A stretch of DNA of 62,079 nucleotides, counting the filler. It is 3 parts of 3 records of this genome, joined end to end, with 100 filler letters (N's around TTAATTAATTAA, not from the genome) between each part and the next. Parts side by side here need not be neighbours in the genome. Positions count along the whole stretch, not along the records: positions 1 to 24,480 come from DRR723986_845; 2 more parts are not named here. The stretch is one strand, 5' to 3'. The translations under genes were made by a program, and so were the position numbers. How positions within the stretch are numbered: the first letter of the stretch is position 1; the number at the start of each line of letters is the position of its first letter. The notes beneath the pieces were generated by a model that worked only from the letters and a program-made list of their open reading frames with translations, was not told the origin of the DNA and did not search any database. Below are positions 5,720 through 53,988 of the stretch, piece after piece.

Positions 5720-6301
5720 TTACTTGGGTTGGCCCAGGCCCCTCTTTCCAGCGTAGTAAAGTTTAATTTTTTCAATGTCGGCATTTCTATCGTTAGTTGG
5801 GTAGAAAACTTCCCCGAAACCCAATTCACGCTTGTCTGCATCCAGATATGCCAGAACGATCGGCACATTTGCATCGAAAGCAATGCGATGAAATCCTGAT
5901 TTCCATTTCGTGACCTTGGAACGCGTACCTTCCGGCGCAATAGCCAAAATCAGTTCACTTTCGGTTTTAAACAGGTCTACAGCCACATCGACCAAAGCCG
6001 CAGCGTTCCTCGTGTCCCTTACAACGGGAATACCACCTAACCAGTAAAACAACTTGCCCGAAAATCCCTTAAATAAGGTGTCTTTTGCCAAATAGCGAAC
6101 GCGAATACCGCAATATCCAACCAAAGCCATAAAGATGGGAAAGTCCCAATTACTAGTGTGCGGCGCAGCGATAACAACATATTTACCTATGTCTGGTGGC
6201 GGTCCAACCACGCGCCAACCAATAAGCTTCAGGTAAAGGCGACCAAGGAAGTTCAATACGGGCCGAAAAATAGAACTGTCATAAATTAAAGCGCGCATCA
6301 T
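5720..6301 (-). CDS. PlsC-like lysophospholipid acyltransferase
   Basis: HTSNWD (HxxxxD) and PEGTRS motifs. Confidence 0.88.
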   Translation of the reverse strand: MMRALIYDSSIFRPVLNFLGRLYLKLIGWRVVGPPPDIGKYVVIAAPHTSNWDFPIFMALVGYCGIRVRYLAKDTLFKGFSGKLFYWLGGIPVVRDTRNAAALVDVAVDLFKTESELILAIAPEGTRSKVTKWKSGFHRIAFDANVPIVLAYLDADKRELGFGEVFYPTNDRNADIEKIKLYYAGKRGLGQPK

Positions 6302-6352
6302 ACCCCCGGAACCAGTCTACTATATGTTGCACTGGTTAATTGAAGGTACTTA

Positions 6353-6479
6353 GAAAGTAAAAATGACGGACAAGCAATGCTCATCCGTCATTTATTTTAC
6401 CATTTCCCGCTCAGGCAAAACAGGAAGGTGGTTTTTAGCTCATGTTCAAGGTGCCTCAGGCAAAAGCATTCTTGAACAG
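6353..6479 (-). ncRNA. Candidate sigma54-dependent small RNA: two hairpins with identical UUUUGCCUGAG loops plus an intrinsic terminator
   Basis: Intergenic. The 11-mer CTCAGGCAAAA (plus strand) occurs at 6410-6420 and 6455-6465, each inside a stem. The hairpin at 6361-6393 pairs fully (with G.U) only on the minus strand and is followed by UUUUUACUUU. A sigma54 motif lies about 12 nt upstream of the first stem. Confidence 0.7.
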
Positions 6480-6489
6480 TGTAAGAGTA

Positions 6490-6504
6490 GCAAAGGCGAT
6501 GCCA
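6490..6504 (-). promoter_or_regulatory. sigma54 (-24/-12) promoter
   Basis: Minus strand reads TGGCATCGCCTTTGC, with GG and GC separated by the canonical 10 nt; predicted +1 is about 6478. Confidence 0.7.
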
Positions 6505-6627
6505 ATAACTTTATATAGCATTTTCAAATGGTTATAAATTTATACAGGTAAATGTTTCAAAAAGACACAGAATATGTGTGCCTTATTGATACAAGTCTTT
6601 AATTGATACAGTGACTTACGAATAGCT

Positions 6628-7590
6628 TCAGAACACCAAACGCTCATAAGATATCAGTAACACGCCAATGACAGGTTTTGAAAAACCGATGTTATCGAGC
6701 AAGCGCGCCAATATTTTCTTGTCGCGTTTTACGATCAACTCCTGAATTTTCTCATAAGGTTGTTTCAGCATAACCGCCAATGATGCTGTAAATAACCGGA
6801 GGTTATTGTTCTGCAAATACGTCAGCAGTACATCTGAGCCCAAACTTTGACGCGCATGCAGCTGCGATAAATAATTGTGAATTTCAGGTTGAGGTGACAC
6901 CTCAAGCGTACGAGAAAACACTTGGCGATTAGCCAGTGAAACCAGATAGGAAGAATAGTCATGCGATATACCGAACTTGCTAATCAGCAATTCGCCGTAT
7001 TGCTTGGATATTTTGAAAACTAACTTTTCAATCATTTCCACGGGCAAGTCCGCCCTGAAAGCCAACGCTTCCATCAGACTAGTGTCTTCCGGGAACCTAT
7101 CAATCACTCTGCCAAAACTACGTTCGGACATTTTTGCCGTTTCGTTTGCGGAAAGTGCTTTAACTGCTTCAGGGGTGCCAACATCTGAAATAGCGAAACT
7201 TACTGCCTCACATAGCCCTTTACGCATGGCAATGCCTTCTTGGTGCCCCCCACTGCAGCTACGCACAATATCTTCAAGAAACTCATCGTCCATAGCCTTT
7301 GAAGCTACCAAAAAAGGGACTGAGACCTGTGCAATGTCTTTCGCGACAATCAACACCAGATCTTTGGGCAGGAAAATGCAGGAACTAAGTTCTTTTGCAA
7401 GCACCTTCCGAACACTGGCAGCCACATCTTCTGCCAAGACTTTTGCCAATTCATATGCAGCCTGACGCTCTGTAGTGTCATCAGAAGACGACAGAATCCG
7501 CGCCGCTTTTCGCGCAACATCTGCACGTGCGTCAAGTTCAAGGCCAGTTACATCTTGTACTTCTGTCACTCCGAAAACTCTTCTTTCCAA
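6628..7590 (-). CDS. DUF2336 domain-containing protein
   Basis: Helical alphaproteobacterial pattern (LAEDVAASVR..LA.EL, DIAQVSVPFL.AS, ALSANETA, LAFRADLP). Confidence 0.75.
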   Translation of the reverse strand: MERRVFGVTEVQDVTGLELDARADVARKAARILSSSDDTTERQAAYELAKVLAEDVAASVRKVLAKELSSCIFLPKDLVLIVAKDIAQVSVPFLVASKAMDDEFLEDIVRSCSGGHQEGIAMRKGLCEAVSFAISDVGTPEAVKALSANETAKMSERSFGRVIDRFPEDTSLMEALAFRADLPVEMIEKLVFKISKQYGELLISKFGISHDYSSYLVSLANRQVFSRTLEVSPQPEIHNYLSQLHARQSLGSDVLLTYLQNNNLRLFTASLAVMLKQPYEKIQELIVKRDKKILARLLDNIGFSKPVIGVLLISYERLVF

Positions 7591-24480: not shown

Positions 24481-24580
24481 NNNNNNNNNNNNNNNNNNNN
24501 NNNNNNNNNNNNNNNNNNNNNNNNTTAATTAATTAANNNNNNNNNNNNNNNNNNNNNNNNNNNNNNNNNNNNNNNNNNNN
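24481..24580. other. Artificial contig-joining spacer (N44-TTAATTAATTAA-N44)
   Basis: Six-frame stop linker flanked by Ns; base composition changes sharply across it. Confidence 0.98.
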
Positions 24581-35565: not shown

Positions 35566-38500
35566 TTGGGGTGCAGCGACCGTGGTTCGCTCTGTGGTGA
35601 TTTGATGATTTGTGACGTATGGGGAGCAAGGCTCAGCAAAGCTGCGCGCGCAGGCGTCTTGTTGCGCTTCGTACAGCTGGCGTTTCTGATACTTTTTCTG
35701 GGAGCCCTGCCTGACGACGCGAAGGCGGCCTACACAGACTGTCCAAGCAATTCTGTCCCGCTCGATCCTCTCGTGTTGAACCTCACGCTGGATGAATGCA
35801 CGCGGGAAAGTGGCATCGGACCTACGACGGCGGACGACGACTGGATATTGATCCAGGATCAGGGTTCTGGAAGCAGCCTCACCAATTTCGATATCAACAA
35901 CGGTCCAAACGACCCGGGGAATGTACTCTCGTATTCCGTTACCAATGGGACGGATACCATCAACGTAACGTCGCCTGGTATTCAGACGATCGATTGTACC
36001 ACGACATGCACAATCACCGGATCCTACGGTGCTACAGGCATTAATTTCACCTATCTTGATGCCGGTTCCAGCGGCGAAGTTACTCCACCGACGACACCTC
36101 CAACATTCACCCAGGCATTTGCCCCCAGTACGATCGTGGCAAACGGCACCTCGACCGTCACATTCACGATCAACAACTCTGCGAACGGTGTGGACGCGAC
36201 ATCTCTCGATTTCACCGACAACTTGCCTTCGGGAGTGACCGTTGCCTCTCCGTCGAACGCTGCCACGACGTGTACCGGTGGCACACTTACGGCGACCAGC
36301 GGATCGGGTGTAATCAGTTACACTGGCGGAACCGCTGCGGCGGGTGCGACTTGTACCGTCAGTGCCGATGTGACGTCTGCAAGTGACGGAAGTTACGTCA
36401 ACACCACAGGTGATCTCACATCATCGCTGGGAAATTCCGGGACGTCATCTGCCACGCTGACGGTTGCCTCACCTGAAATCAACGTACAGGGCAACGGGGT
36501 AAGCATTGCCAGTGGGGATACGACCCCTTCGGCGGCAGATGATACCGAATTCGGCAGCGTCTCTGTTTCGAGCGGTACAAATCCAAATACCTTCACAATC
36601 CAGAACACGGGTAATGGTACGCTCTCACTGACCAGTGTGACATCCTCTGACAACGCACAATTCGCGGTGTCGGGGACAACGGCCGGTTCGATACCGTCTT
36701 CGGGATCTGTGACCTTCACGGTCACCTTCGATCCGTCCGCGACGGGCTTGCAAACGTCAACGATTACGATCGTCTCGAGCGACGCGGATGAGAGTCCCTA
36801 TACGTTCAGTGTTCAAGGAACAGGCATTGCACCCGAGATCGACGTCCAGGGAAACGGCGTCAGTATTGCCAGCGGGGATACGTCTCCGAGTGCGGCAGAT
36901 GATACCGACTTCGGGAGTGTTGCGGTTTCGAGCGGATCTGTGGCTAATACGTTCACCATCGAGAACACAGGAACCGACACGCTGACGCTTACAAGTGTAA
37001 CGTCGTCGGACAACACCCAGTTCGCCATTTCCGGTACGACAAGCGGATCGATCGCAACTTTGGGGTCTTCGACCTTTACCGTCACTTTTGATCCCAACGC
37101 CGGTGGGAACCAGACTGCGACGATCACCATCGTTTCCGATGACATCGATGAAGGGACTTACACGTTCACGGTACAAGGGACTGGTATCGCGCCAGAGATC
37201 AACGTTCAGGGGAACGGGACAAGTATCGTCAGTGGCGATACGACGCCGTCCGCAGCGGATGATACCGACTTCGGCAACGTTTCGGTTGCGAGCGGATCCA
37301 ACGCAAATACGTTCACGATCCAGAACACCGGAACAGATGCACTGACGCTGACGAGCGTGACATCTTCCGACAACACACAATTCGCATTATCCGGCACGAC
37401 CAGCGGCTCGATCGCCGCCTTGGGGTCTGTGACCTTCACGGTCACTTTTGATCCCAATGCGCTGGGAACGCAGACGTCGACAATCACGATTGAATCCAAC
37501 GATCCCGACGAAGGAACATACACATTCAGGGTACAGGGCACAGGTGTGGCACCGGAGATCAACGTCCAGGGGAACGGCACTAGTATCGCCAGTGGTGATA
37601 TAACGCCGTCGGCTGCGGACGACACCGACTTCGGTAGTGTTTCAGTGTCCAGCGGAACCAATGCGAATGTCTTCACGATCCAGAACACGGGTACGGACAC
37701 GCTGACGCTGACGAGCGTGACATCCTCGGACAATACGCAATTTGCGGTGTCGGGCACGACGAGCGGTTCGATCGCCGCCCTGGGGTCGGTGACGTTCACG
37801 GTCACTTTTGATCCCAATGCGCTTGGAACCCAAACGTCGACGATCACGATTGACTCCAACGATGCCGACGAGGGAACCTACACATTCAGGGTACAGGGCA
37901 CGGGAACGTCCACGCCGAGTTTCACGCAGTCCTTTGCTCCAGCGACCATTCTGTCAGGTGGAACCTCGACGGTTTCCTTCGTCATCAACAACTCCGCCAA
38001 CGCGGTCGCCGCGACCTCGCTGGATTTCACCGACAATCTCCCCGCAGGATTGACAGTTGCCTCGCCTGCAAACGCCTCAACCACCTGCACCGGGGGAACG
38101 ATAACGGCGACGACAGGTTCTAGTGTGATTTCCTACACGGGAGGCACCGTTGCGGCCGGGGGCAGCTGTTCCTTGAGCGCGGACGTTACCGGCTCCACAG
38201 ATGGTTCCTTCGCGAACACAACTGGGGACCTGACCTCCAGCCTTGGAAACTCCGGAACGTCTTCAAGCACTCTGACTGTTGCTACTCCCGAAATCGACGT
38301 GCAGCGTCCCGCAGGAAACTCTATTGCGGATAACGGAACGGATGCTCAGGGAACAGTAAACGTGGGAGACCAGCAAACACTGGTCTACACGATCGAAAAC
38401 ACGGGTACCGCGACGCTTACCCTGACCGGAACGCCAACCAGTGCCTCGGCAGGCAATGTTTCGGTCGATTCAATCTCCGCGCCGGGGCTCACAACGCTCG

Positions 38501-53888: not shown

Positions 53889-53988
53889 NNNNNNNNNNNN
53901 NNNNNNNNNNNNNNNNNNNNNNNNNNNNNNNNTTAATTAATTAANNNNNNNNNNNNNNNNNNNNNNNNNNNNNNNNNNNNNNNNNNNN
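53889..53988. other. Artificial contig-joining spacer (N44-TTAATTAATTAA-N44)
   Basis: Identical to the linker at 24481-24580. Confidence 0.98.

Follow-up and report, generated by a model that had tools for sequence, protein, structure and literature searches.

A conserved locus for a predicted sigma-54-type small RNA with twin loops complementary to the glycine riboswitch core

An ORF-free gap in a 62,079-nucleotide stretch of DNA (the window: the whole stretch that was analysed, filler included) carries, on its minus strand, the same 11-nt loop at the tips of two hairpins with unrelated stems. The locus lies between a DUF2336/SpbR-family gene (6628-7590) and a gene for a PlsC-like acyltransferase (Pfam PF01553; 5720-6301, minus strand). 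It raises two questions: whether the gap holds a gene for a small RNA, and what a loop presented twice would recognize. A sequence-only reading had proposed a new sRNA family of about 125 nt under enhancer-binding-protein control, acting as a dual-seed regulator, RNA sponge or protein decoy. Here the anatomy of the locus, its conservation in relatives and the complementarity of its loops to a known RNA are described, and the possible modes of action are weighed.

Anatomy and conservation of the locus

The promoter element TGGCATCGCCTTTGC (6504-6490, minus strand; TGGCAT-N5-TTGC) has the GG at -24 and the GC at -12 of the sigma-54 consensus (TGGCAC-N5-TTGC), and is the only exact TGGCAY-N5-TTGC match in the window, in agreement with the -24/-12 motif noted from the sequence alone. 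Its predicted start site, near 6478, coincides with the beginning of hairpin 1 (6443-6478), which displays UUUUGCCUGAG at its apex (6465-6455). An A-rich linker, UGAGCUAAAA (6433-6442), is single-stranded in the predicted fold and leads into hairpin 2 (6399-6432), with the same apex at 6420-6410 on a stem unrelated to the first. At the DNA level the 11-mer TTTTGCCTGAG is found at these two minus-strand positions and nowhere else in the window. In the predicted fold three weak pairs (U.G, U-A and U.G) close each 11-nt apex, leaving UGCCU as a pentaloop. The third hairpin was called by a terminator scan as an intrinsic terminator (6353-6393), with a 15-pair stem (6393-6361) followed by the U-rich tail TTACTTTCTA. 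A short AUGAG motif, spanning the junction between hairpin 1 and the linker, is also found in the other lineage described below, where the linker is predicted to fold into a small extra hairpin. The acyltransferase gene lies downstream on the same strand, starts about 52 nt past the U-tail, and may be reached through terminator read-through.

The minimum-energy fold of 6478-6353 consists of the three hairpins (-48.8 kcal/mol, z = -6.9) and was equalled by none of 200 shuffled sequences. The plus strand folds less well (-36.6 kcal/mol, z = -3.5), so that the fold favours the minus strand. Each single motif is within chance for a stretch of this length: for the exact sigma-54 motif, 0.67 occurrences are expected per window and 52 of 100 shuffles contained at least one, and with the N runs set aside the window has two pairs of identical 11-mers spaced 12-80 nt apart, where shuffles average 0.96. 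The locus rises above chance through its fold z-score and its conservation in orthologous loci.

No open reading frame is common to the two lineages compared; the small ORFs of the window and of the related locus L031 are unrelated, and none is conserved between lineages. With a GC-rich stem and a U run on the transcribed strand and no conserved ORF, the unit has the features by which Rho-independent sRNA genes are recognized. Searching the whole window with Rfam 15 (4227 models) returned no match at the gathering score, and relaxing the threshold to E values up to 10 over 6250-6650 gave four chance-level hits only (a plant miRNA, a snoRNA, SpF25 and a CRISPR repeat). Within these 62 kb the locus does not behave as a dispersed, REP-like repeat: a search of the window with covariance model R1 gave no further copy at an E value below 0.01.

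The window itself is uneven in composition. G+C is 46-49% over 1-24 kb, the part that contains the sRNA locus, and 56-63% over 24-62 kb; the change coincides with the first of two 88-N runs (24481-24568 and 53889-53976), and the stretch may accordingly join contigs that differ in composition or origin. Farther along, a 1668-aa ORF with choice-of-anchor D domains contains a 360-nt unit repeated four times in tandem (36470-37901; 76% matches).

Relatives were sought in metagenomes with a pattern demanding both loops 20-50 nt apart, which matched at least 119 loci. Among those listed, three are orthologous copies (L012, L031 and L045) and the other 116 are non-members; most of the non-members viewed are coding or non-coding tandem repeats that chance to carry the 11-mer. 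These include GC-rich contigs with tandem repeats of about 57-68 nt (L006, about 2430-2570; L094, about 300-545), in which the 11-mer tips an 8-10 bp hairpin (GATCATGC.../...GCATGATC) without a sigma-54 motif. They also include several related contigs bearing arrays of 41-nt direct repeats (L005, L010, L022 and similar), each repeat of which contains the imperfect palindrome TTTTGCCTGAGGCAA. Viral contigs yielded four loci with the double-loop pattern and no relative in an acyltransferase search. A tblastn search of plasmids with the acyltransferase gave identities of 42% or less and no orthologues, and a search of genome contigs with the DUF2336 protein recovered one unrelated Cytophagales locus.

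The three orthologues, of which L012 is cut by a contig end, each carry two hairpins with stems unlike those of the window, and a terminator. All three have an identical promoter element, TGGCACACCCCTTGC, whose distance to loop 1 is 38 nt, as against 39 nt in the window. Terminators of 11-15 pairs plus a U run were called on the same strand in all three complete copies (window, L031 and L045). The neighbours of L031 and L045 are alike, with a GlcD-like FAD oxidase and an acyltransferase, the latter 54% identical in L031 to that of the window. In both loci an inserted gene for a class-V aminotransferase (L031, 2707-3846; L045, 2708-3847), which has only weak matches in NCBIfam, separates the sRNA from the DUF2336 gene. 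Comparison of L031 with L045 shows 94% identity in the sRNA and 100% in the promoter, compared with 58-71% in the flanks.

The four copies were aligned with a covariance model, so that the alignment is one fitted to structure; in it, 97.8% of cells pair and 11 of the 37 pairs are changed on both sides. Control alignments with the 3' partner slid by 1-3 columns contained 0-2 such changes. Hairpin 1 (helices 1 and 2) accounts for compensatory change in 7 of its 13 pairs, and in the terminator a U.G pair is changed to C-G between L031 and L045, with pairing kept. All of the compensatory changes separate the window from the other lineage and thus represent one deep comparison, between effectively two lineages. 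The invariance of the loops is partly built in, since the search pattern demanded both of them; the promoter, its spacing, the terminator, synteny and covariation were not imposed by that pattern. Stem covariation, the -24/-12 motif and its spacing, both loops and the terminator are thus all found again in the relatives. We conclude that the locus is a real, conserved and uncatalogued sigma-54-type gene, predicted to specify a small RNA of about 125 nt.

Promoter and candidate upstream sites

Two tandem 17-bp candidate enhancer (UAS) sites are located upstream of the promoter on the minus strand: site 1, TGTATCAATTAAAGACT (6610-6594), is 106 bp and site 2, TGTATCAATAAGGCACA (6593-6577), is 89 bp upstream of TGGCA. 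Sites of this form (WGTWTCA-N3-TGRNACA) are present about 90-110 bp upstream in all four copies, in L012 only as half-sites. The half-site TGTWTCA is at -106 and -89 in the window and at -109 and -92 in L031 and L045, while L012 has half-sites at -92 and -82 only. In L031 and L045 the sites begin at the stop codon of the aminotransferase gene. The best example, two adjacent sites of 7-3-7 form, is TGTATCATTTTGATACA in L045. A possible third site, TGTGTCTTTTTGAAACA (6569-6553, minus strand), has two mismatches to TGTWTCANNNTGWWACA and is weak, since the window contains four such matches in total and shuffles average 1.28. A GGCACA-N7-TGTGTC element with TTTTT after it (6559-6582, minus strand), just past the DUF2336 gene, has by eye the look of a weak terminator; it overlaps sites 2 and 3 and received no call in the terminator scan.

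Tandem candidate sites at matching upstream distances in four copies make control of the sRNA by an enhancer-binding protein plausible. The candidate sites share the 7-3-7 geometry of the E. coli NtrC consensus given in PMC8743547, TGCACCAnnnTGGTGCA, and agree with it at 5 of 7 letters per half-site. This NtrC-like geometry makes a nitrogen signal our leading guess. GcsR, the glycine-responsive activator of Pseudomonas, is described in PMC4894688 as using three tandem 18-bp sites of 7-4-7 form; for boxes of this GcsR/TyrR type, agreement with the 17-bp sites is poorer than for the NtrC geometry. No activator gene was recognized among the ORFs scanned. A sigma-70-like match (TTGGCA-16-TACACT, 9/12) overlaps the promoter of the window; the sigma-70 reading was rejected because no such promoter was called in L031 or L045.

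Complementarity of the loops to the glycine riboswitch core

Taken as its complement, the loop reads CUCAGGCAAAA, which is identical to positions 68-78 of the Rfam RF00504 (glycine riboswitch) consensus; this run forms the 3' strand of P3 and the first part of J3/1. The consensus reads CuCUCAGGCAaaaGGAC or, as seen in alignments of real hits, AAuCuCUCAGGCAaaaGGACcGag. A scan with RF00504 of 151 genomes from the phylum of the Cytophagales genome gave no match, and the consensus was viewed in hits from viral contigs and plasmid records. This match was noticed after the fact. In a full-text literature search for the 11-mer or its complement, the tandem glycine riboswitch was the only bacterial RNA context among the matches listed, and CUCAGGCAAAA appears in aptamer 2 of the V. 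cholerae construct described in PMC13648278.

Alphaproteobacterial glycine riboswitches were sampled as eight loci (L164-L171) picked from a plasmid collection by BLAST with one riboswitch query, a sample that is biased because the query contains the 11-mer motif. Several of these "plasmid" records are of chromosome size (e.g., Shinella, 4.6 Mb). RF00504 was hit in seven of the eight loci, and the exact 11-mer is in aptamer 1 of six of these seven, with the Sphingomonas riboswitch matching at 10 of 11 nt. Aptamer 2, located downstream by eye, matches at only 7-8 of 11 nt in all seven, which gives no support there to a scheme with one loop for each aptamer. At the gathering score, the scan of these loci reports aptamer 1 only, and aptamer 2 diverges after CUCAGGC/U. 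The riboswitches precede gcvT (L166 and L167) or a D-amino acid dehydrogenase gene (L168 and L171).

A count over both strands gave a single copy of the 11-mer in the Shinella record (4.6 Mb) and another in Pseudorhodobacter (1.58 Mb); a Sinorhizobium replicon of 2.64 Mb has none. Both occurrences in these 8.8 Mb fall within glycine aptamer 1, so a seed of this sequence would find almost no other site in such genomes. Complementarity to these aptamers extends over 13 bp for hairpin 1 and 11 bp for hairpin 2 of the window, and over 13 bp and 15-16 bp, respectively, in the other lineage; the pairing beyond 11 bp is modestly above chance. The 11-mer duplex is computed at -15.7 kcal/mol, against a cost of about 5 kcal/mol to open each apex. 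Unrestricted RNAduplex runs of the sRNA with the riboswitches are uninformative, since random controls average -42.5 kcal/mol.

We consider an enhancer-dependent, trans-acting sRNA of about 125 nt that pairs with glycine riboswitch aptamer cores to be the best reading of the locus, and would put its chances at about even. From the sequence we infer transcription of the RNA, its activator, its host target and the outcome for that target, as follows. An activator bound at the tandem 17-bp sites would fire the sigma-54 promoter near 6478, and transcription would end at the intrinsic terminator to give the RNA of about 125 nt. With UUUUGCCUGAG displayed on two hairpins, it would pair with CUCAGGCAAAA in the ligand-binding core of aptamers upstream of gcvT and similar genes. 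The open UGCCU pentaloop would nucleate on AGGCA of the aptamer, and pairing would then spread through the three weak closing pairs, over CUC and AAAA. The aptamer's own P3 5' strand would be displaced and P3 and the glycine pocket unzipped, such that glycine would no longer be sensed and a second signal would be imposed on glycine catabolism. The outcome could go either way, with an ON-switch locked off despite glycine or a sequestered ribosome site freed. In Neisseria, the 3' core of the aptamer is argued in PMC13104608 to sequester the ribosome site when free of ligand.

This more specific proposal, a trans-acting "anti-riboswitch" in which the two loops invade the core (P3 3' strand and J3/1), override sensing and link a second signal, probably nitrogen, to glycine catabolism, falls in our judgment just short of an even chance. 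It is the best-supported specific mechanism, with the balance for and against it close to level. Counting against loop invasion, aptamer cores are compact and fold during transcription. Full-text literature searches retrieved no described case of an sRNA targeting an aptamer core. RF00504 has no hit in the window at the gathering score. The 4.6-Mb Shinella record, the sole alphaproteobacterial record of chromosome size searched, has the riboswitch without a copy of the sRNA, and the pairing of sRNA with riboswitch is therefore not universal.

The strongest competitor keeps the sigma-54-dependent dual-seed sRNA and gives it ordinary mRNA targets, such as translation-initiation regions containing part of CUCAGGCAAAA, with the riboswitch match being coincidental. 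The anatomy and conservation of the locus fit this account equally well; loop-borne seeds are usual in alphaproteobacterial sRNAs (AbcR1/2, NfeR1), and the poor match of aptamer 2 in the riboswitches examined also speaks for it. It requires, though, that an exact match of 11 nt to the best-conserved segment of a widespread riboswitch, in both loops and in both lineages, arose by chance. We estimate such a coincidence at less than 1 in 1,000 after allowing for all conserved RNA motifs. The confinement of the 11-mer to that aptamer in 8.8 Mb of alphaproteobacterial DNA also weighs against it, and the window has no complementary site apart from the locus itself. We regard ordinary mRNA targets as possible, if on the whole unlikely.

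Alternatively, the RNA could be the 5' leader of the acyltransferase gene, with the sigma-54 promoter driving that gene, the terminator serving as a gate, and the loops binding a read-through factor, either protein or RNA. In the window, L031 and L045 alike, the RNA is directly upstream of the acyltransferase on the same strand. No sigma-70-like promoter was called between terminator and gene at these three loci, although the consensus promoter scan is crude and may miss alphaproteobacterial promoters. The terminators, however, are strong (11-15 pairs and a U run), and inspection revealed no conserved alternative antiterminator pairing. Between L031 and L045, moreover, the spacer from terminator to gene is 58% identical, as against 94% for the RNA. 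A leader function would in any case be compatible with a trans role for the terminated RNA. As a rival explanation it appears distinctly improbable.

More doubtful still is a protein-binding decoy, in which the two identical apices would be recognized by an RNA-binding protein that the RNA titrates. Identical apices with identical weak closing pairs on unrelated stems do have the look of a structure-specific protein site; the weak pairs need no such site, because they arise automatically in any antisense to CUC...AAAA. Only two sites are present, whereas known titrators (CsrB, RsmY/Z, CrcZ) carry many; the loops are without GGA and without A-rich Hfq/Crc motifs, and the locus has no linked gene for a candidate protein. 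Of the roles first suggested, base pairing has thus gained a specific candidate target, the glycine riboswitch core, and the protein decoy has gained no support. Finally, that the locus yields no functional RNA, being a conserved untranscribed intergenic structure or a relic, is scarcely credible: each single motif is within chance for a 62-kb window, but the fold (z = -6.9), the 11 compensatory pairs, conservation far above the flanks, and an architecture kept beside neighbour proteins only 54% identical all speak against it.

Riboswitches are usually viewed as self-contained sensors, and in the known cases of dual control it is the ribosome site or the coding region that the sRNA targets. 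If the pairing with the aptamer core is real, seeds antisense to a ligand pocket would constitute a new layer of control, in which one RNA regulator disables or re-programs another. On the glycine cleavage system, which releases ammonia, the glycine signal would be merged with a global one, conveyed by sigma-54 with an enhancer protein and plausibly reflecting nitrogen status. Even if the proposed target is wrong, the locus would define a new family of sigma-54-dependent sRNAs with covarying stems and fixed twin loops. Its host lineage is poorly sampled and apparently alphaproteobacterial; the DUF2336 protein is placed by the protein atlas to phylum level only, in the Pseudomonadota.

Comparison with known regulatory RNAs

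Titrators of the CsrB/RsmZ type have multiple GGA motifs in their hairpin loops, unlike the UUUUGCCUGAG loops found here, which have none. Substrates of ANTAR proteins consist of two adjacent hairpins, the second overlapping a terminator, with hexaloops whose first and fourth residues are A and G; here the predicted loop is a UGCCU pentaloop (11 nt if the weak pairs open), and hairpin 2 is clear of the terminator. Enhancer-dependent sigma-54 promoters drive other sRNAs (Qrr1-5, GlmY and CrcZ), and the alphaproteobacterial AbcR1/2 and NfeR1 repeat the same seed on several hairpin loops. The loops of these sigma-54 and multi-loop sRNAs are of the anti-SD CCUCC type, GGA or CA-rich, unlike those of this locus; the RNAs are members of other families, and to our knowledge none of Qrr1-5, GlmY, CrcZ, AbcR1/2 or NfeR1 has been reported as antisense to a riboswitch core.

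Read on its plus strand, the locus contains two copies of the most conserved 11 nt of the glycine riboswitch, 45 nt apart. The locus is not itself a glycine riboswitch, as neither strand has an RF00504 hit at E values up to 10, and of the conserved segments of the riboswitch (GGAGA, GCCGAAGG..GCAA and CUCAGGCAAAAGGAC among them) it has the 11-mer alone.

NrsZ of Pseudomonas aeruginosa is the closest known RNA in design. As described in PMC4253122, it is induced via NtrB/C and RpoN and consists of repeated stem-loops with one identical loop sequence, for which a kissing complex that melts a structured 5' UTR has been proposed. It thus shares with the present locus identical loops on repeated hairpins, and its NtrC/RpoN dependence parallels the control suggested here. 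NrsZ has three modules with the loop motif ACAGGCAG, is processed to short units and targets rhlA (PMC4253122), compared with two hairpins bearing UUUUGCCUGAG in the window. There is no sequence likeness between the two, and the target proposed here is a riboswitch aptamer.

In biology, the closest system is gcvT of Neisseria gonorrhoeae, where a tandem glycine riboswitch and the trans-acting sibling sRNAs NgncR_162/163 act on one glycine-cleavage mRNA and a second signal is thereby integrated (PMC13104608). According to that account, NgncR_162/163 pair with the ribosome-binding site (-6 to -14), which belongs to the expression platform, and not with the ligand core. In what it reports of them they are not described as sigma-54-dependent, and they are without twin loops antisense to the aptamer. 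The same source calls dual control by sRNA and riboswitch scarce, naming only btuB/OmrA and rpfA. At E. coli btuB, OmrA and the AdoCbl riboswitch act on one mRNA, as would the sRNA and riboswitch proposed here. OmrA, by that description, binds the coding region, recruits Hfq and acts independently of the riboswitch (PMC13104608), whereas the twin loops of the present RNA would pair with the aptamer itself.
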